From IMG/VR virus record IMGVR_UViG_3300033816_000828, positions 16,156 to 80,155 of that record: a stretch of DNA of 64,000 bases. One strand, given 5' to 3'. The position numbers were made by a program, and so were the translations under genes. Below the pieces are notes generated by a model, which saw nothing but the letters and a program-made list of their open reading frames with translations, did no database searches and was not told where the DNA came from. The stretch's first letter is position 1; each line of letters begins with the position of its first letter. This stretch comes from a virus. Positions 15,968 to 63,775 of this stretch are shown piece by piece.

Positions 15968-18729
15968 ACAATAGTTTCTCCAGTATTGATATTTATAGTA
16001 CCAAGATTTTTAGGTATTGGTAAATTTGTTTCTTTGCACATACAGTTCATACGCATTCTAGATTGAGTATGATCAACATCATAAATTCTCGTACTATTGA
16101 CCTCTGGATCGCCTTCACTAGCACCAGGATTAATTTCTGTGTATCCTAAATCTACTAAATGTTTTAATGTTAATCTGCTTAAAACTCGTTTCTCATTTGG
16201 CTCTGGAGCGTATCCAATCATCAATTCGTCCCAAACTCCATAATAAAATGGTTCTGTAGATTGTTGTAATCTCAATCCATCTTCCCAATGACTATCAACA
16301 GTAGTTATATTGCCCTGAGCGGCTCCTCTATTTTCGAGAGGTGTTTTTGTTCTTGATAATCCAGTTATACTATTATAAGCGGTTTGTGTTTGTGAATATG
16401 CTGTACCATTTAATAAGTGATTAATTGGTCGAACACCACCAGATAGAGTGCTATATTCATAATTCCAATAAACTCCCAGCCCTAATGCATGACACAACTC
16501 GTGCGCAAAAATATCTACCCAATTTGAATGATTATATCTATTTTGATAAAAGGTATTTACTCCCATAACATAAGAAATTGTATTGGCTTTTACCCCTGGC
16601 AATCCATAAACCTGAGCAAATGAGTCGATGCCAGCATATGCAACGAATGGACCATCTTCTTCATAATGAAAATCAATATAAATTGGAAAAGCTCCACTCC
16701 ATTCAGCACCATAAAAATTACGTATAGCCTGTACAACAGTATCATCATATTTAATGTATTTAGATAATCTATTAGTAGCTTCTAATATATATTCTTTCCA
16801 TGGAGATATGGCTGTTATATTATTATAGTCTGCATGAAATTGTAATATTTCATCTAATTGACTATTATCAAATAATATTGGAGGAGTTTTAGGCGTGACA
16901 ACATTACTATTATCAGAATATGGGCCAGTTCCAACAGAATTAATAGCAGCAACCTTAAATATATAAGATGTGTTATTAGTTAAATTATCTACTATATAAC
17001 TAATTTTATCACTATTTATAGTAGCAACATCTGTCCAAATTGATCCACTATTTGTCGATTTTTGAATTTTATATGAAATAATTGTTGAGCCACCATTGTC
17101 TGATGGTTGTTTCCAATTTAATACAGCCTTGGAATCTAATGGTTCAGCTTTAAGATTAGTTGGTTTTTGCGGCACTGTTGGCTGAGGAGTAACGCTAGAA
17201 CTTGCAGAACTATATGGGCTGCTACCAATAAGATTTGTGGCTGATACTCTAAATTTATATGAGGTTCCATTTGTAAGTCCTGTTATTAATACGCTATTTG
17301 ATGCCACTGCTGATCCATTATTTGATAATGACCATGAAGCGCCATTATTTGATGATTGCTGTATTGTATAATTTAATATGGGTAATCCACCAGTATTAAC
17401 TGGAGCATCCCATGATAATAATACTGATTTATTTTTCGATACACCCTGCACATTAGATGGAGCATCTGGTGGTGGTGAACCAGGAACAACAGGGATAGAA
17501 TTATCGCTATATGAACTAGTGCCAATATTATTCACTGCTGCTACTCTAAAAACATATGATTGTCCAACTGTGAGATTTTCTACTGTCATTGAAGTATTTG
17601 ATGTAATTGAAGCATAAGTAATCCAATTACTTCCATCATTATATTGAATTAAATAATATAATATTGGAATATTTAATCCTCCGGTATTTGTTGGTGCTGT
17701 CCATGATATGGAAACTGAACTATTACCCAAACCAGTTATTTGCATATTTGTTGGACTGCCGGGAACACTTGTTGGTCTAATAATAATTTTATTACTCCAA
17801 ACACTACTACCATCTGGTATATTATATTTTTCACTACCAAATACATTGAATGCTCTTATTGTTAATGCATAATATAATCCGTTAGTTAAATTAGAAACTG
17901 TAAAACTATTAATATTATTAGTATTATTAAATCTTCTTCTAGATAGTTCAAAAGGAGTAATGTTTTGAGGTGTTGGTATATATTTTTGTGCTTCTGCTAG
18001 TGTTTTAAATCCAGCACATCTAATAGCATACTCAACTATATTTTTTCCACCATTATTGGTTGGAGGTGTCCAATTAACTAAAGCGGCACCACCGCCACTA
18101 GCAGGACTACCAACAAAAGATGTTGGTGGTGATGGTGGAGCAAATACTAACACAGAAATAGGAGAGGTTGTTGGACTCCAGCCGTTTTGGTTTTTTGCTG
18201 AGATTCTGCATAAATACGTTGTACCATTTGATAATCCTGATATAGTATAACTAAATATATTAGAAGATATACCTGTTATTGGTGTCCATGAACTGCCACT
18301 ATTGCTAGAATATTCAATTTTATATTCACTAATTGGTGTGGCTCCAATATTGGTAGGAGATTTCCAATTAACTAAAATACTATTGATATTATTTAAAGCG
18401 GTTACATTTACTGGTACTGATGGAGTTACAGTTAATGGTTTTACCGGAGATGTTTGTGGGCTGTATGGACCAATACCAAAAGTATTCGTTACAGCTATTC
18501 TAAATATATAAAATAGATTGGGATTTAATGATGATATTGTGGTTGTTGTTACTGTGCCATTTATTCTTCCTGGTGGTGTGGGGAACGTTGTCCATGATGA
18601 GCCACTATTTGTACTATATTGTATTGTGAAAAAACTTCTACTAGGAACACCAGGAAGCTTATTCCATCTTAAAACTATAGATAAGATTTTGGGAGTAACA
18701 GAGGTAATAACTGTTGACTGTGTGCTCAT
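15964..18729 (-). CDS. Six fibronectin type III domains plus a C-terminal leishmanolysin (M8)-like zinc metalloprotease
   Basis: Repeated W..P...GG..I..Y...L.NG..Y.FRV.A.N..G; HELCHALG, SHWE, DELM. Confidence 0.85.
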   Translation of the reverse strand: MSTQSTVITSVTPKILSIVLRWNKLPGVPSRSFFTIQYSTNSGSSWTTFPTPPGRINGTVTTTTISSLNPNLFYIFRIAVTNTFGIGPYSPQTSPVKPLTVTPSVPVNVTALNNINSILVNWKSPTNIGATPISEYKIEYSSNSGSSWTPITGISSNIFSYTISGLSNGTTYLCRISAKNQNGWSPTTSPISVLVFAPPSPPTSFVGSPASGGGAALVNWTPPTNNGGKNIVEYAIRCAGFKTLAEAQKYIPTPQNITPFELSRRRFNNTNNINSFTVSNLTNGLYYALTIRAFNVFGSEKYNIPDGSSVWSNKIIIRPTSVPGSPTNMQITGLGNSSVSISWTAPTNTGGLNIPILYYLIQYNDGSNWITYASITSNTSMTVENLTVGQSYVFRVAAVNNIGTSSYSDNSIPVVPGSPPPDAPSNVQGVSKNKSVLLSWDAPVNTGGLPILNYTIQQSSNNGASWSLSNNGSAVASNSVLITGLTNGTSYKFRVSATNLIGSSPYSSASSSVTPQPTVPQKPTNLKAEPLDSKAVLNWKQPSDNGGSTIISYKIQKSTNSGSIWTDVATINSDKISYIVDNLTNNTSYIFKVAAINSVGTGPYSDNSNVVTPKTPPILFDNSQLDEILQFHADYNNITAISPWKEYILEATNRLSKYIKYDDTVVQAIRNFYGAEWSGAFPIYIDFHYEEDGPFVAYAGIDSFAQVYGLPGVKANTISYVMGVNTFYQNRYNHSNWVDIFAHELCHALGLGVYWNYEYSTLSGGVRPINHLLNGTAYSQTQTAYNSITGLSRTKTPLENRGAAQGNITTVDSHWEDGLRLQQSTEPFYYGVWDELMIGYAPEPNEKRVLSRLTLKHLVDLGYTEINPGASEGDPEVNSTRIYDVDHTQSRMRMNCMCKETNLPIPKNLGTININTGETIV

Positions 18730-48789: not shown

Positions 48790-49162
48790 TATTTAACCAT
48801 TTTTTATATTTGTATTTATTAATGAAGCCTATAATGTTTGATATTTCTACATTTCTTCTTATTATACGAGAATCTGGTATTTTGTGAACTTTATATTCTT
48901 TTATTAAGTCTGGTCGACTATCATAGTCTACAATACAAACTATCGTATCATCAATTGACGGATCATTAGAATCCAAAAATTCGCTCTTTAATAATTTACA
49001 GTTTTTACACCAATCAGCACTAAATACAACCAATATATCTTTATTAGAGGACTCTGCAAGGGCCACAGCATCTTCAAGACTATTAACAAAAACGGGGCTT
49101 TCAGCAGCCCCGTTTATTGCAAAGATCATAATAAATATACATAATATTATTTTTTTTAACAT
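48776..49162 (-). CDS. Exported thioredoxin-family protein
   Basis: Signal peptide, FSADWCKNC. Confidence 0.85.
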   Translation of the reverse strand: MLKKIILCIFIMIFAINGAAESPVFVNSLEDAVALAESSNKDILVVFSADWCKNCKLLKSEFLDSNDPSIDDTIVCIVDYDSRPDLIKEYKVHKIPDSRIIRRNVEISNIIGFINKYKYKKWLNNARH

Positions 49163-50049
49163 ATTTTACCTATTATTCTACCTTTAGATGTTCTGTGTAT
49201 GAAGCCTTTACGAACAAGGTATGGCTCTATACTATTTTCAATAGTTTCTATTGATATGCCTGTTAATGATGATATTGTTTTTAATCCTAGTGGTGTTCCT
49301 TTGTGTTTTTTCAGAATTTCAATATATGATTTATCATACATATCAAAACCATTACTATCAATACCCTGAATATTAAATATATCATCTATATTTTTAGTAT
49401 TCGATTCGTCGCACAGTTTATAATTTTTATACCATTGCAATCTAGAATTTAATATTCTTGGTGTTCCTTTGCTTCTTTTGGCTATTTCCAGTAGGTCTTT
49501 TTCATCAATCATTAGTCCGAGTTTTTCGGCGTTCAATCCTGCTAGTTTGGCTAACTCATCGTCAGTATAAAACGACAAATGTTCCTTAATAATAAACCTA
49601 TCATAGAATGGCTGACTAAGACTTCCTCCACTAGTAGTTGCTCCGACTAATGTGAATTGTGGAACATCAATAGTTTCTGCATTTCCATCAATAACAGTAC
49701 TTAATTTAAAGTCTTCCATCACTGGATATAAAAATTCTTCTACTAATTTTGGAAGTCTATGTATTTCGTCTATAAACAAAATAGATTTTGGTGCCATTCC
49801 AGTTAAATAAGGTAGTATGCTTTTGACACTCCTTAAATTGGCAGCATTACATGTATATAGATTAACGCCCATCTCATTAGAGATAGCACTTGCTATAGTT
49901 GTTTTTCCAAGACCAGGAGGCCCATCAATTAAAATATGAGGCAGTACCGATTGTGAGTGCTTGCAACCCATAACAGATACTTTTAATCTTAAAATTACAT
50001 CAGACTGACCAATGATTTTATCAAAACTATTAGGGCGTAAACTATTCAT
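49156..50049 (-). CDS. ruvB: Holliday junction branch migration ATPase RuvB
   Basis: LRP..F..IIGQ, GPPGLGKTT, FIDEIHRL, LYPVMEDF, GTPRI, EPYL. Confidence 0.93.
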   Translation of the reverse strand: MNSLRPNSFDKIIGQSDVILRLKVSVMGCKHSQSVLPHILIDGPPGLGKTTIASAISNEMGVNLYTCNAANLRSVKSILPYLTGMAPKSILFIDEIHRLPKLVEEFLYPVMEDFKLSTVIDGNAETIDVPQFTLVGATTSGGSLSQPFYDRFIIKEHLSFYTDDELAKLAGLNAEKLGLMIDEKDLLEIAKRSKGTPRILNSRLQWYKNYKLCDESNTKNIDDIFNIQGIDSNGFDMYDKSYIEILKKHKGTPLGLKTISSLTGISIETIENSIEPYLVRKGFIHRTSKGRIIGKIC

Positions 50050-50450: not shown

Positions 50451-50870
50451 TTAGTTCAGTATATCGAACAGTCCTTTATAGTAAATGGGCTGACTAACAA
50501 AATATTTGGCATGTGCTTGTAAGTGTAATTTATATTCGTTATTTATAGGATCAGAAATAAAGTATTTCTTTTTCCATATTGGATTACCACCATAATTGGA
50601 TCCCAAATACTGGAAGGAGTTACCCTTACCAGTATCGGGATTCCAACTATTCACAGGTAACGAAACAAACGGAAAGCCAGGAATATTATTTAATGGTATA
50701 GAAGGTATTTGATTCCAATCTATATCATTAAACATATCAGTTAACCATTTTGATAGCGGGCTATCTGCCGACACATCAAATTTAAAGTAATAATGATAAG
50801 GATCTAATGATGGATGATCATAGTCATAATCATCTTCATCGTATTCATTATCGTCATAATCTTCGTGCAT
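50451..50870 (-). CDS. Hypothetical protein with acidic N-terminus
   Basis: ORF with SD-like sequence. Confidence 0.65.
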   Translation of the reverse strand: MHEDYDDNEYDEDDYDYDHPSLDPYHYYFKFDVSADSPLSKWLTDMFNDIDWNQIPSIPLNNIPGFPFVSLPVNSWNPDTGKGNSFQYLGSNYGGNPIWKKKYFISDPINNEYKLHLQAHAKYFVSQPIYYKGLFDILN

Positions 50871-50884
50871 TGAATTATCTCTTA

Positions 50885-50973
50885 AAAAATGGGAAGGAAT
50901 CGAACCTTCTCACATAGCGTTTGTCGAATTTCCCAACCAGAGGCTATGATCTTAGTCACCAGACTCCATTTTC
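50885..50973 (-). ncRNA. tRNA-like structured RNA lacking a canonical anticodon arm
   Basis: AAAATGG/CCATTTT closing stem, AGTC-TGGT-GACT hairpin, CATAGC/GCTATG arm, GAAGG-TTCGATT-CCTTC T-arm. Confidence 0.6.
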
Positions 50974-50982
50974 TTTTAACGA

Positions 50983-51861
50983 TCAATACTGATCGTCGTA
51001 ATCATCCTCATCTTCATCGTCAGCATCAGCGTAGTAATCTTCATCCATATCTTCTTCATCGTCATTCCATGCCCAACTATACTCATGATCATAATCATCT
51101 TCGTCATCATTATAGTCATCTTCAGCAAAGTTAGATGAATAAAGAGGCTTGAGAAGTTCGCCTTGATACTCTCCAACAACTTCATATTGGCAAGTACGAA
51201 GTTTCTCACAATTACAATCACTAGGAACGCTAACAACGTCACAAGGATTAATCTTCACAATAACAATACGGTCACCAGCATCGACGCTGCCGTAACCAGC
51301 AACATAGTTCAATGCTCCAGCATGAAGTCCCTGAGAACAACCGCGACCACGATTATCATCAACTTTTGATCGGGTCATCTTGCAAATATCGCCAACCTTG
51401 TTACGAAACTTTCCAGCATACTTGTCCATATAATCACCACGAACAGCCTTATATGCTAGAAAGCATCCATCCTCAGTAATTGGCAGATGCTCATGCTCAA
51501 GGAAATCATAAAGTTCCTGCTGACTCTGCATACTAGGATTATCCATAAGATTATTCAGAAAGTTAACGAGGGGCTGAAATGGCAGACCCTTGCTCATAAA
51601 CTCCAGAATTCTCTTACTAATACTACCATGAACTTCGTCACCATCATAGAACACCTTACCTTCCTTAATATCCACAAGACCATCGCTAAATACTGCGACT
51701 GCCTTTTGAATATCAACAATCTCAAGTAATTCATCAGCGGTCGCTGTGGGCAAACGCTCAAGAATCATCTTGTAATTAATATGATCCGGCAAAACCTGAT
51801 AACTCTGGTTATTAAGAACCAGTGTCAAATTACCATCAACAAACATAAACGGAACAGCCAT
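50983..51861 (-). CDS. rIIB: rIIB-like protein
   Basis: LPITEDGCFLAYKAV, CSQGLHAG, VKINPCDVVSVP, LRTCQYEVV, acidic tail. Confidence 0.9.
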   Translation of the reverse strand: MAVPFMFVDGNLTLVLNNQSYQVLPDHINYKMILERLPTATADELLEIVDIQKAVAVFSDGLVDIKEGKVFYDGDEVHGSISKRILEFMSKGLPFQPLVNFLNNLMDNPSMQSQQELYDFLEHEHLPITEDGCFLAYKAVRGDYMDKYAGKFRNKVGDICKMTRSKVDDNRGRGCSQGLHAGALNYVAGYGSVDAGDRIVIVKINPCDVVSVPSDCNCEKLRTCQYEVVGEYQGELLKPLYSSNFAEDDYNDDEDDYDHEYSWAWNDDEEDMDEDYYADADDEDEDDYDDQY

Positions 51862-56855: not shown

Positions 56856-56890
56856 GATTGTATCCTTATAGAATTAAGTTAATCAATAAA

Positions 56891-56963
56891 TAGGAGTGGT
56901 GGGAGTCGAACCCACACTTGAGGCATTTTAAGTGCCTTGACTCTGCCTTTGGTCTACACTCCC
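56891..56963 (-). tRNA. tRNA-Leu(UAA) with short variable loop, CCA not encoded
   Basis: GGGAGTG/CACTCCT+A, AGGCA-CTTAAAA-TGCCT, GTGGG-TTCGACT-CCCAC. Confidence 0.9.
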
Positions 56964-56970
56964 ATAAAAA

Positions 56971-58812: not shown

Positions 58813-59517
58813 TTAGTCAAATCTATATGGTTGAGACTTGTCCCATATCTGTTGATATCCAACCATATTTTCTGTTTTCCATTGAGTAGAATTATTAATT
58901 TCATTAATATAGTGATTAGATAATTTATATAAATGTATTTTACTTCTATCGCTATTATATCTATTTGATATTTTTCTAATTTTATACATATCAGAAATTA
59001 TATCTAAAATAGCCTCTGTATATTCAATTAAATCTTCATATCGAATAAAAATATAATTATCTACTAAATATGGCATATACAGGTATAAAAATTGTAATTT
59101 ATTAGATCTCATATCAAAAATATCTTGATATTTCTCTTTTGTATACCAATGAGAATCACAAAATTTGTGATAATCAGATAAACCTCTGGCAGATTGCCAA
59201 GGTTTAATATCTAAAATATTGGATGTATCTAAATGATATGGAGTTTTTTTCATACCTCCTATCCAATTGTAAATATTTCTAACAATGCCTATAAATAAAG
59301 TATTGTGTGCTGTATTTAAATTACTCCATTGAGAACAACCAAAAAAATGCTTATGACCATAATCCCAAGTGATTGGAATATGAAATACATCTTTGATTAA
59401 TTTTTCTACCCAATTAGTACCAGAATGTCTTTCCCCATAAATAGTAAAATTTTGGATGGAATAATTATCTATTGTAGAATAGAATTGGTTATATTTAAAT
59501 AGTTCTATTGCAACCAT
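58813..59517 (-). CDS. Sulfotransferase-like protein
   Basis: YGERHSGTNW, VRNIYNW, IRYEDL. Confidence 0.7.
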   Translation of the reverse strand: MVAIELFKYNQFYSTIDNYSIQNFTIYGERHSGTNWVEKLIKDVFHIPITWDYGHKHFFGCSQWSNLNTAHNTLFIGIVRNIYNWIGGMKKTPYHLDTSNILDIKPWQSARGLSDYHKFCDSHWYTKEKYQDIFDMRSNKLQFLYLYMPYLVDNYIFIRYEDLIEYTEAILDIISDMYKIRKISNRYNSDRSKIHLYKLSNHYINEINNSTQWKTENMVGYQQIWDKSQPYRFD

Positions 59518-60808
59518 GAAGTATTTTAAATGTTGGAAATCTTAGACTAATACCACCATCTTGGTTTTTGGTTTCCTCAAAATACTGGACTGTGATAATC
59601 TTTCCAAGAATCTTTTTAGGATGCTGATAAAATTCTTGTCTTTGGTCAATAGCGAAACCGCTACCAACCCTAACAATATGTTCCTTATGCTTAATCATCA
59701 CACAAGATAGCATAGTTTCTTCATGCTCTCGACCATTCAAGACATATCTAAATGGCCCCATTTCAACATCAACAACCTCATACTCGTCATCAAAAAACTT
59801 CTTAACTTTCAGAAGGTCTTTGCTACGCTTGCCCTTATATGGCTCGTCTGCTCGCAGCATTATTCCTTCCCAACCATAATCAGCGGCTTCTTTAACCCAC
59901 TCTTGAAAATGTTCGTCATTATGAATCAGTTCTTGTTCCAGCAGAGTAAGGCATGGACATTCGTTCTTGCTCATAGTCTCTGTCAGATTCGCCAAGCGAA
60001 TAGAATACGGACGATTCTTCTCGCCCTTCTTGCTATAAAATTCATCGTGCGTAATCATATCAAAAATCTTAAAAGATGGATTAGGAATAGTATGATCCTT
60101 CTTCTTTAGTTGTTTCATCACTCCCTGAAAGTCCTCATTACCATCATCATCAACAAGACAAAGTTCTCCATCAAATACTACATTAGTAATGTTAAGAGCC
60201 TTAATACCATCCCTAACGATGCCAAGAGTATCAAACTCTTTTCCCGTGCGGGAATAGAAGGTAGTATCACCATTACTATCAACAATCCCAATACATCTAG
60301 CACCATCAATTTTTCTGCTAACATACCAGCCATCCTTCCAATCTACCAGTTTAGGCTCGTACTTATCTGCCAGAGCAACACTAAACTCTGGAATATGGTC
60401 AGGAATAGCCTTGTTGATAATCTTGTCACCAGCACGGGTTTTCAAATCCTTGTCGATAATACAATGAATCAGTTCCTCGTATTCAGAGTAGTGTTCGATA
60501 AAACTATTCACAGCAGAGATAGCATCATGTCCAGTAATCTTTCGACTCTTTAGAGCATCCAACAAATCAAAGAAATTTTTATATTCGTTCTTTCTGGCTA
60601 CAAGATGATTCTTCTTCTTCAAATTATCGCTGGTCACATTATATTGCCACAACGGATGATAAGTATAAAGTAAAATATTTTTAGTGAAAGATGCTGCGGC
60701 ACTGTTATGTCCGCAATAATCCAAAATAATTCCTTCCTTATCTTTAGTGCTGCTCGTAGCACGAAGATCACGAACCATTCCCATAACATAATTAAAATCG
60801 TGAATCAT
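59495..60808 (-). CDS. ATP-dependent DNA ligase
   Basis: SRKIDG, SRTGK, FDGEL, EGIMLR, LLKVK, VGSGF, SLRFP. Confidence 0.95.
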   Translation of the reverse strand: MIHDFNYVMGMVRDLRATSSTKDKEGIILDYCGHNSAAASFTKNILLYTYHPLWQYNVTSDNLKKKNHLVARKNEYKNFFDLLDALKSRKITGHDAISAVNSFIEHYSEYEELIHCIIDKDLKTRAGDKIINKAIPDHIPEFSVALADKYEPKLVDWKDGWYVSRKIDGARCIGIVDSNGDTTFYSRTGKEFDTLGIVRDGIKALNITNVVFDGELCLVDDDGNEDFQGVMKQLKKKDHTIPNPSFKIFDMITHDEFYSKKGEKNRPYSIRLANLTETMSKNECPCLTLLEQELIHNDEHFQEWVKEAADYGWEGIMLRADEPYKGKRSKDLLKVKKFFDDEYEVVDVEMGPFRYVLNGREHEETMLSCVMIKHKEHIVRVGSGFAIDQRQEFYQHPKKILGKIITVQYFEETKNQDGGISLRFPTFKILHGCNRTI

Positions 60809-60833: not shown

Positions 60834-60862
60834 AGTATACCATACGCTATCTGTATTGTCAA
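60834..60862 (-). promoter_or_regulatory. Sigma70-type early promoter for the ligase
   Basis: TTGACA-N17-TATACT with extended TG. Confidence 0.75.
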
Positions 60863-61236
60863 GTATCGTCAATACGGGTCTTGCTTCTTAAATTATTTAT
60901 TTTAGCAGCAAGTAAATAGTTCATGGCTTTCGTGATACTCTCAAGAGTATCTCCTAATTGTCCTAGTCCCCAATTGCAGTTTTCACAAATCCATCCTCTG
61001 AAACTATTATCATCATGATCATGATCTAAACACCATTTATTCTTAAAAGGAATTCTTCCACAGCATTGACAAACATCTGGTTTTGGTGGTGCTTCTTTAT
61101 GAAGTTGATTTCTCAATCTAGAATGTTTTTTGAGACATTGTTTGCATCGTGTATCTAATCCATCAACACGATTTTTATGTTTAGAAAAAGATTTTTTATT
61201 TTTTCTTTTTCCACAATAAATGCAAACTTTTCTCAT
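60859..61236 (-). CDS. Endonuclease VII-family homing endonuclease
   Basis: CQCCG...LDHDHDDNSFRGWICENCNWGLG. Confidence 0.88.
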   Translation of the reverse strand: MRKVCIYCGKRKNKKSFSKHKNRVDGLDTRCKQCLKKHSRLRNQLHKEAPPKPDVCQCCGRIPFKNKWCLDHDHDDNSFRGWICENCNWGLGQLGDTLESITKAMNYLLAAKINNLRSKTRIDDT

Positions 61237-63198: not shown

Positions 63199-63227
63199 AT
63201 TGTATACTATCGACCGATCCCTGTCAA
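63199..63227 (-). promoter_or_regulatory. Sigma70-type promoter for tRNA-Ile
   Basis: TTGACA-N17-TACAAT ending 8 nt before the tRNA. Confidence 0.75.
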
Positions 63228-63775
63228 CTCTTGAGATATTTTTCGTAGTAGTTGCGATAAATACTCATAATAATACCACTAGTTGTTCCAACATTTAAAG
63301 ACCGTACACTTCCATAAGTAGGAATAGTTAGAACACAACTACAAGCCATAAGAATTGTTTCTGATAAACCAGCATTTTCTTCTCCAAAAATAAAAATTGG
63401 TTCATCAATATTAGAAAAATCAAAACTAAAAGGATCGAATGTGATTTCTTTGTATTCTGGAATATTATTCTCAATAGCAATTAATGGTCGGCCAGTAGAT
63501 TTAATTACTTTAATAAACTCTTCTTCGGTTTTATAATGAAACATTGGAGTGTAGTGATGGGTTCCTACGCTACCTCTTTTATCCCATTTCTTTTTACCAA
63601 CATAATGTACGCTACTAAATCCAAAAAAATTAGCATTACGAACCATTGTGCTGAGATTAAAATCTCCACCAATATTAATCATAGCAACACTTGCTGGAAT
63701 ACTATTTTTATGACAATAGTTTCCGATTTCTGGCACACTCAACTCTTTAAGACTGTCTATCACGTTCATTTTCAA
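63224..63775 (-). CDS. SPOUT (SpoU/TrmH/TrmL-type) RNA 2'-O-methyltransferase
   Basis: NLSTMVR, FGEENAGLS, IPTYGSVRSLNV. Confidence 0.9.
   Translation of the reverse strand: MKMNVIDSLKELSVPEIGNYCHKNSIPASVAMINIGGDFNLSTMVRNANFFGFSSVHYVGKKKWDKRGSVGTHHYTPMFHYKTEEEFIKVIKSTGRPLIAIENNIPEYKEITFDPFSFDFSNIDEPIFIFGEENAGLSETILMACSCVLTIPTYGSVRSLNVGTTSGIIMSIYRNYYEKYLKS

Follow-up and report, generated by a model that had tools for sequence, protein, structure and literature searches.

Directly downstream of the rIIB gene in a 64,000-nucleotide stretch of DNA of an uncultured lake phage (IMG/VR record IMGVR_UViG_3300033816_000828, positions 16,156 to 80,155; hereafter the window, whose own positions serve as coordinates throughout), we analyzed an 88-nt element, read on the minus strand, that resembles a transfer RNA (tRNA) with a different structure in place of its anticodon arm. 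We found that the element is real, conserved, and single-copy. Its acceptor-like stem, its T arm, and a short hairpin with GG in the loop covary in related phages, and the arm between them is replaced from one group of relatives to the next. The interpretation that we prefer, and that we put forward tentatively, is that the element may be a cis-acting, end-forming signal of the rII operon, which would mimic the top half of a tRNA and be read by the tRNA-processing enzymes of the host.

An earlier reading of this DNA, made from its letters without database searches (the sequence-only reading), had drawn a tRNA-shaped RNA without an anticodon arm after rIIB, and had suggested that it was a tRNA-elbow mimic serving either as a decoy for tRNA-targeting defense or as a processing signal for RNase P and RNase Z. 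That reading named the neighboring gene correctly, as judged by its similarity to annotated rIIB genes (Table 1) and by the rIIA homolog (893 amino acids) that lies just upstream of it.

Conservation and Covariation of the Element

The window rIIB has 411 relatives in IMG/VR. We fetched 80 rIIB loci from that collection and then 80 more by means of a divergent query; all come from uncultured phages, several of which are represented by complete genomes of 197–224 kb. A covariance model of the window's subtype (R1) matched the sequence just after rIIB in all 80 loci of the first round, with 41 strong matches (87–90 nt) and weak matches (50–86 nt) in the rest. We also built a core model (R2) that contains only the acceptor stem, the GG hairpin, and the T arm, and that was derived from 12 short variants, none of which belongs to the window's subtype. 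R2 finds the window element at E = 1.2e-7, and it makes a single match directly after rIIB in 76 of the first 80 loci and 67 of the second 80 (143/160 contigs). In four complete relatives (197–224 kb), R2 makes exactly one strong match per genome, always at the rIIB site, and neither R1 nor R2 detects extra copies in the genome, where the only other matches are weak ones to real tRNAs. The element begins 6–13 nt past the rIIB stop codon in most loci, which indicates that its position is fixed.

The stems covary within the window's subtype. Among 23 distinct sequences, 96.1% of cells are paired, compared with 40%–48% when the partners are slid by 1–3 columns, in an alignment that was fitted to the model and that therefore favors the structure somewhat. 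Eleven pairs change on both sides (61 cells), a number that is reached in none of 500 shuffles. The double-sided changes are located in the acceptor stem, a pair like 26-44 of tRNA, the distal hairpin of the long middle arm (three of its five pairs), and the T stem; the D-like hairpin is invariant within this subtype.

For the family as a whole, we parsed the loci from anchors and obtained 61 unique clean elements, which represent 136 loci. The acceptor, GG hairpin, and T stems of these elements are 95.4% paired (67.6% after shuffling), with two to six pair types per position. The parser demands pairing in the GG hairpin, so that the 100% pairing found there is by construction, and it is the alternative forms of this hairpin that count as real covariation: AGUC/GACU, CCGC/GCGG (with the loop UGG(A)), UGUC/GACA (UGGU), and GUU/AAC (UGGN). 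The loop itself is always UGG or UGGN. The acceptor stem shows three to five pair types per position and is weakest at its terminal pairs, and the 3-70 pair may be G-C, A-U, G-U, or A-C. In the T stem, G53-C61 is invariant and the remaining pairs covary with up to six pair types, and the T loop is UUCGAUU in 53 of the 61 unique members. The discriminator is U in 56 members, four to seven T residues occur within 8 nt (positions 70–73 plus the next four) in 60, and the base that precedes the element, which is able to pair with U73, is A in 50.

These compensatory changes, together with the near-universal presence of the element, exclude simple decay, as the sequence-only reading had argued from its intact stems. 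The stems are indeed all intact in the window, but some relatives have mismatches at the two terminal acceptor pairs. A decaying, functionless tRNA pseudogene is the least credible of the explanations that we considered: it would account for the mismatched terminal pairs and for scores below threshold with tRNA finders (see below), but it is contradicted by the presence of the element at the same site in nearly every relative, by compensatory changes in every helix, and by a T loop and a GG loop that stay invariant though the identity of the rIIB protein drops to ~71%–80%. As judged from the alignments, family-wide selection acts only on the top half of the tRNA, because the acceptor stem, the GG hairpin, and the T stem covary while the middle arm is replaced. 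The description of the element as a mimic of the tRNA elbow has thus held up, with a conserved acceptor/T stack and GG loop and a replaceable anticodon arm.

Structure of the Element and Turnover of the Middle Arm

Direct reading of the window confirmed the letters that had been quoted for 50885–50973 on the minus strand. The minimum free energy (MFE) fold of 50885–50972, computed with ViennaRNA, contains a 7-bp acceptor stem, the AGUC/GACU hairpin, a 6-bp basal stem, a 5x4 internal loop, a 5-bp distal hairpin, and the T arm, and it includes every stem that the sequence-only reading had drawn (Table 1). At −23.4 kcal/mol (z = −1.4), the folding energy is not significant by itself. The G at 50973, which the sequence-only reading had counted as part of the element, would form an extra G-U pair with the discriminator.

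The pairing of the D region can be drawn in two ways. In the alignment to the Rfam tRNA model, the D stem would be the canonical one (GUCU/AGAU, with a loop of 8 nt), whereas RNAalifold and the single-sequence fold favor AGUC/GACU around a loop of 4 nt. Inside the window's subtype, hardly any change is seen in either pairing, and only the AGUC/GACU type of hairpin shows compensatory change across subtypes. We therefore dropped the canonical stem; the D-like loop containing GG, as originally drawn, is the better description. U8, A14, and R15 are all missing from the D region of the element.

Table 1. Features of the tRNA-like element and of its site in the window
Feature	Positions	Strand	Basis and remarks
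Whole tRNA-like element, 88 nt	50885–50972	minus	Rfam tRNA 27.2 bits; R1 109 bits; R2 E = 1.2e-7; MFE fold
Acceptor-like stem, 5' strand AAAAUGG	50966–50972	minus	Pairs with 50886–50892
D-like hairpin AGUC-UGGU-GACU with conserved GG	50954–50965	minus	Abuts the acceptor strand with zero linker
Long arm at the place of the anticodon arm	50913–50948	minus	Basal stem CAUAGC/GCUAUG, internal loop CUCUG/AAAC, distal hairpin GUUGG-GAAAU-UCGAC
T arm GAAGG-UUCGAUU-CCUUC	50893–50909	minus	MFE fold and family alignment
Acceptor-like stem, 3' strand CCAUUUU, plus discriminator U; no encoded CCA	50885–50892	minus	Sequence
rIIB gene, 292 amino acids	50983–51861	minus	tblastn, 37%–43% identity to annotated rIIB of T4-type and other phages
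Spacer of 10 nt from rIIB stop codon to element	50973–50982	minus	Read from sequence
Spacer of 14 nt with U-rich start and ribosome binding site (AAGAGA) of next gene	50871–50884	minus	Read from sequence
ORF139 (open reading frame), 139 amino acids, acidic N terminus, no assigned function	50451–50870	minus	List of open reading frames; no Pfam family

Inspection of the weak R1 matches revealed a common frame that consists of an acceptor-like stem, an abutting hairpin of 3–4 bp with the loop UGG or UGGN, a T arm with the loop UUCGAUU, the 3' acceptor strand, and the discriminator U. Single-sequence folds of all variants recover the same architecture. The middle arm within this frame is anywhere from 10 to 46 nt long, its sequences are unrelated, and it is missing from a 47-nt form (GGAGUG-AGC-AAUUUGG-GCU-AU-T arm-AA-CACUC). 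It may be a 3-bp hairpin with a GNRA cap, a 6-bp stem with the loop UUAGUG, a two-tier helix of 40 nt, a single strand of 13 nt (AUACUAGUUAAAG), or, in loci L150 and L157, a three-way junction that bears another T-arm-like hairpin and another GG hairpin. In subtype 1, to which the window element belongs, the basal stem and the internal loop (CUCUG/ANAC) are invariant, and the distal hairpin covaries (GUUGG/UCGAC, GUAUC/GAUAC, GUUUA/UAAAC).

Other arrangements of such hairpins were seen among the loci. The nested tRNA look-alikes of L150 (2441–2545) and L157 (2374–2488), which occur also in L142, L149, and L178, contain a second T-arm-like hairpin, GUGG-UUCGAUU-CCAC. In L168 and L170 (~2353–2411), a long plain hairpin with UUUU after it takes the place of the T loop, and the flanking remnants (GAGUGA...GGGCUAU...CCCGC...CAC-UUUU) recall the 47-nt form. 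Unrelated viral contigs with no rIIB nearby (L103:150–230, L112:8720–8800, and L113:5280–5340) carry back-to-back T-arm-like hairpins (GGUUCGAUUCC) spaced by AGUCUGGCGACU, which may be a different kind of tRNA-like array.

Comparison with tRNA Genes

Tools for the detection of tRNA genes do not report the element at their standard settings, in agreement with what the sequence-only reading had expected. By default, ARAGORN calls no gene at the element and lists only tRNA-Leu(UAA), tRNA-Ile(UAU), and transfer-messenger RNA (tmRNA) in the window, and it calls no tRNA gene near rIIB in any of the first 81 loci. At Rfam gathering thresholds, the window yields only the tmRNA and the tRNA-Leu. When searched permissively, the Rfam tRNA model (RF00005) aligns with the element from end to end at 27.2 bits, below its threshold of 29; the alignment inserts 20 nt in the anticodon loop and deletes one position between the acceptor and D stems. 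No other Rfam family is significant around the element or in the related loci, and the tmRNA model gives no match to the element. For the other subtypes of the element, there was no Rfam tRNA match at E ≤ 0.05 in the related loci.

The element has the 7-bp acceptor stem and the 5-bp T stem with a consensus T loop that are expected of a tRNA. It has no 5-bp anticodon stem with a 7-nt loop, the loop being absent as the sequence-only reading had pointed out; instead, the stem at that place encloses 24 nt that fold into an internal loop and a hairpin. No anticodon is conserved among the orthologs, in which the arm is an unrelated hairpin, is reduced to a 13-nt linker, or is missing. There is also no conserved set of aminoacylation identity elements: the acceptor sequence varies freely, and the 3-70 pair is not fixed. 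By these sequence criteria, we consider that the element is a non-decoding tRNA look-alike and not a tRNA.

Two intron-containing tRNAs were considered. With an intron search and a lowered threshold, ARAGORN calls a tRNA-Leu(CAA) with a 17-nt intron at 34/35. We rejected this call; the same splice would leave close relatives with the anticodon CAC, there is no long variable arm as in bacterial tRNA-Leu, and a relaxed score was required. The second is a functional tRNA-Gln(CUG) whose anticodon loop is broken by a hairpin intron of 16–17 nt at or near 37/38, which we regard as highly improbable. It would explain why C32-U33-C34-U35-G36-G37 is conserved in subtype 1, why the inserted hairpin changes by compensation, as an intron might, and why the complete tRNA model of Rfam can be aligned once 20 nt are inserted in the anticodon loop. 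However, there is no bulge-helix-bulge (the internal loop is 5x4, without the 3-nt bulges around a 4-bp helix), the 16–17-nt insert matches no intron family in Rfam, and no intron-less ortholog was found in 185 rIIB loci (ARAGORN called no tRNA in the first 81, and the others have the same kind of element at this position), where the site holds arms without an anticodon-like loop or no arm. Neither the window's record (G000) nor any of four complete relatives yielded an RtcB; the search did not extend to T4-type RNA ligases, and a host enzyme could serve. A complete relative already has an ordinary tRNA-Gln(UUG), its only tRNA-Gln, located elsewhere, and its tRNAs all read A/U-ending codons; the absence of U8, A14, and R15 from the D region likewise speaks against a functional tRNA, and the sole tRNA intron seen in the lineage is a group I intron in the tRNA-Leu(UAA) of L086.

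The genuine tRNAs and the tmRNA of the phage likewise have no encoded CCA, and most of their trailers start with UU. The tRNA set of complete relative G001 reads A/U-ending codons (Gly-UCC, Thr-UGU, Arg-UCU, Glu-UUC, Leu-UAA, Ile-UAU, and others). The tRNA-Leu(UAA) of the window (56890–56964, minus strand) is just 75 nt long and has a short variable region, and the copy in G001 is 83 nt. A class-I-like tRNA-Leu would be unusual for bacteria. At L086:680–965, a group I intron (712–907; Rfam, 66.2 bits) interrupts tRNA-Leu(UAA) at its classical position between U34 and A35, whereas the tRNA-Leu of the window is intron-free. R1 also makes a weak match of 134 nt (E 0.06) at L197:12010–12143, inside a tRNA cluster of G001 and without an ARAGORN call, and this match may be an unusual or interrupted tRNA.

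A Candidate End-Forming Signal of the rII Operon

The part of a tRNA that RNase P, RNase Z, and the CCA-adding enzyme recognize is its top half, and none of them requires the anticodon arm. We favor, with reserve, a cis-acting end-forming signal because the parts of the element that are under selection (the 12-bp acceptor/T stack, the T loop, and the GG loop) match what these enzymes recognize. We also favor it because the element holds a fixed place squeezed between two cistrons with no room for a promoter, because its 3' context (no CCA, and a trailer that starts with UU) equals that of the real tRNAs and tmRNA of the phage, because distant phages have ordinary terminators at the same site, and because the t-elements of plant mitochondria provide a precedent. 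The next start codon in the window is 14 nt past the end of the element, a distance that leaves the next gene no room for a promoter of its own, and the ribosome binding site of that gene begins inside the U-rich trailer.

In the proposed mechanism, the rIIA-rIIB transcript would extend into the element. Once folded, the element would have its 7-bp acceptor-like stem stacked on the 5-bp T stem, and docking of the T loop onto the GG in the D-like hairpin would create a tRNA elbow. Reading the top half only, the RNase P of the host would cleave at the 5' edge and so set the 3' end of the rIIB message. A host activity of the RNase Z type would cleave after the discriminator U in the U-rich trailer, as is required for the CCA-less tRNAs of the phage, and this second cleavage would release the downstream message right at its ribosome binding site. 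The excised RNA of ~88 nt may gain CCA, and the U run may add some transcription termination. We infer the cotranscription of the element with rII from spacing only, and transcription through the element, each cleavage step, and any effect on expression are likewise parts of the model.

The site after rIIB in other phages is consistent with such a role. None of six more distant phages examined has a tRNA-like element there. A 595-kb phage (LR756511) has a perfect 11-bp hairpin with a U-rich tail after rIIB, Dickeya phage LIMEstone1 has an annotated terminator, and T4-type phages have only 28–41 nt at that place. Because of these outgroup terminators and the plain hairpins of L168 and L170, end formation looks like the conserved role of the site.

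Several observations weigh against an end-forming signal. The element is present once per genome of 197–224 kb, and a punctuation device of general use might be expected to recur at the ends of several operons. In subtype 1, the basal stem and the CUCUG/ANAC loop are invariant while the acceptor stem drifts; a pure top-half signal leaves this unexplained, and the invariant parts suggest that the long arm does something in the lineage of the window's subtype. The A that usually precedes the element (50/61) can pair with U73, and the first pair is usually A-U with the two terminal pairs often mismatched, all of which is suboptimal for RNase P. The A/U-rich base that is followed by U residues also looks terminator-like. 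Finally, cleavage by RNase P would leave the 3' end of the rIIB mRNA unprotected, which is normally destabilizing in bacteria.

Some of these features would be expected if the element were mainly a transcription terminator or attenuator, or a structure that protects the 3' end of the rII message, built from a former tRNA gene. In that case, the A/U-rich closing stem and the U run would halt RNA polymerase, and the compact fold would block 3' exonucleases. A U run is found at or after the 3' strand in 60 of the 61 unique members, the preceding base usually lengthens the stem by an A-U pair, and plain hairpin terminators occupy the site in the outgroups and in two family members (L168 and L170). 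A loose scan for the terminator consensus flags the 5-bp T arm with the U run as terminator-like, but the U run begins 3 nt past that stem, the hairpin beside it is only 5 bp long, and the closing stem encloses a multi-branch loop. In addition, the most conserved parts (the UUCGAUU loop, G53-C61, and the UGG hairpin) are superfluous for termination, a strong stop would silence the promoterless gene that starts 14 nt downstream, and the genuine tRNAs of the phage have the same U-rich trailers, so that the U run is not specific to the element. We consider it quite unlikely that termination or end protection is the main function.

A trans-acting small RNA is a weightier alternative, if still an unlikely one. 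The top-half mimic would be released by tRNA processing, tailed with CCA, and would occupy a host or phage factor that recognizes the elbow or the acceptor end; such a factor could be, for example, a defense toxin that modifies or cuts the 3' ends of tRNAs, in which case the fast-changing middle arm would be a lineage-specific module. The single copy per genome fits this proposal, being the situation of the tmRNA and not that of a mark used at many punctuation sites. Nearly every subtype has a well-folded middle arm, which is nonetheless repeatedly replaced among phages whose rIIB proteins are at least 75% identical, the internal loop that is invariant in subtype 1 suggests that the arm matters, and some variants (L150 and L157) have a second, nested T arm and GG hairpin. 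The phage's own set of tRNAs and tmRNA is also an investment in the translation apparatus of the host.

On the other side, no partner protein is evident (searches of the window's record and of four complete relatives gave no TROVE/Ro60, no CCA-adding enzyme, and no RtcB), blocking an enzyme with a stoichiometric decoy would be inefficient, and some subtypes have no arm (the form with the 13-nt linker and the 47-nt form). There is no link to known defense, and the model does not need the strict place of the element at the end of rII. The more specific proposal of a dedicated trans-acting phage RNA, in which the rapidly replaced middle arm (in some phages with its second, nested elbow) would tune binding to a host or phage factor of the elbow or acceptor end, such as a defense enzyme directed at the tRNA 3' end, and which would act as an RNA-based counter-defense or regulator with an arms-race module, seems to us slightly less probable again. 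Of the two functions originally suggested, the RNase P/Z signal fits the anatomy and the position better; a decoy for defenses that cut anticodons is unlikely because many relatives have no anticodon-like arm. The element may conceivably be a decoy for enzymes whose target is the acceptor end.

Relation to Known tRNA-like RNAs

We found no description, in the searchable literature, of tRNA-like elements linked to phage rIIB, of anticodon-less phage tRNA mimics, or of phage t-elements. By analogy, the closest documented counterpart of the phage element appears to be the plant-mitochondrial t-element. T-elements lie at mRNA ends, where they are cut by RNase P and RNase Z, tailed with CCA, and base-modified, and they are not aminoacylated (Forner et al. 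2007, PMC1920247; Arabidopsis tRNA-seq 2024, PMC11658184). The phage element shares with them a non-decoding tRNA-like fold, a location at the end of a protein-coding transcript unit, and the lack of an encoded CCA. In contrast to the phage element, t-elements are recognizable relics of tRNA genes, are organellar, and are found at several genes. The phage element is single-copy and tied to one operon, has a hairpin of 4 bp and 4 nt with GG in place of the D arm, and shows fast turnover of the middle arm, and its processing is here only proposed.

Bacterial Y RNAs such as YrlA, some of which are phage-encoded, have a tRNA-like domain with features of the T arm and the D arm and are substrates of tRNA-recognizing enzymes (Chen et al. 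2014, PMC4201824). The phage element is a tRNA mimic with the same two kinds of feature. However, YrlA is encoded beside a Ro60/TROVE gene and has a long Ro-binding helix made by its two ends, whereas the ends of the phage element form only an acceptor-like stem of 7–8 bp. TROVE (PF05731) is absent from the window's record and from four complete relatives in a search that found its controls. We rejected identity with a Y RNA, as these genomes have no TROVE/Ro60 gene and the element has no long end helix.

With the tRNA-like domain of tmRNA, the element shares an acceptor stem, a T arm, a reduced D region, and the lack of an anticodon arm, but it has no mRNA-like reading frame, no pseudoknots, and no G3-U70 alanine identity pair, and it does not match the Rfam tmRNA model. 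A phage-encoded tmRNA is located in the same window, 11 kb from the element. The likeness to canonical tRNA (RF00005) extends to the 7-bp acceptor stem, the discriminator, the 5-bp T stem with UUCGAUU, and GG in the D region; the differences are that the D arm of the element is a tetraloop hairpin that abuts the acceptor stem and that there is no 7-nt anticodon loop. MALAT1 mascRNA and the tRNA-like RNAs of murine gammaherpesvirus-68 are cotranscribed modules that are released by RNase P and RNase Z, tailed with CCA, and not translational. These are eukaryotic nuclear and viral systems with other hosts and enzymes, and they have no sequence relation to the phage element.

Gene Neighborhood

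The nearest rIIA and rIIB proteins of cultured phages are less than 45% identical to those of the window, and a DNA search against cultured phages gave only low-complexity matches in the acidic tail of rIIB. Tracts rich in Asp, Glu, and Tyr lie on both sides of the element, in the N terminus of ORF139 (MHEDYDDNEYDEDDYDYD...; 50451–50870, minus strand) and in the C-terminal tail of rIIB (...DDEDEDDYDDQY; 50983–51100, minus strand). A homolog of ORF139 is found downstream in most relatives, either directly after the element or behind an inserted gene for a primase-like protein of 411 amino acids. The primase-like gene lies between the element and the ORF139 homolog in about half of the loci and is absent from the window, so that the 3' side of the element is a junction of gene gain and loss. 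Its presence is independent of the subtype of the element. Pfam has no family for rIIB, ORF139, or the primase-like protein.

The primase-like gene is preceded by a conserved, non-coding leader motif, which lies between the element and the gene (L086:6540–6590; also in L088, L128, L084, L151, L105, and L095). The motif consists of (U)UGAUAAUGAUAG, a short hairpin, and then UCCCAA or UCCCGG, ~40 nt before the start codon. The hairpin covaries (AGCA-GAGGU-UGCU, AGUG-GUGUU-CACU, AGGU-GUGGU-GCCU), and the motif has no Rfam match at E ≤ 0.05. On this evidence, it could be a leader RNA or a protein-binding site.

Elsewhere in the window, a gene for a SpoU-family RNA methyltransferase adjoins tRNA-Ile(UAU), and genes for an ATP-dependent DNA ligase, endonuclease VII, and a RuvB-like ATPase lie nearby. 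The coordinates of these four genes, listed jointly, are 63224–63775, 59495–60808, 60859–61236, and 49156–50049 (all on the minus strand).

Implications

Standard annotation overlooks the element, and the intergenic regions after rIIB are consequently left blank in phages of this kind. The family is a natural experiment on the top half of tRNA: the acceptor/T stack, the T loop, and a GG loop of four bases have been retained in hundreds of genomes of lake phages, and the rest has been swapped, duplicated, or deleted. Should the element instead act in trans, it would represent a new class of phage-encoded tRNA mimic. If it is an end-forming signal, as we tentatively propose, then bacterial phages would use tRNA mimicry to shape their own mRNAs, a strategy with documented examples in plant mitochondria and among some eukaryotic and herpesviral transcripts.

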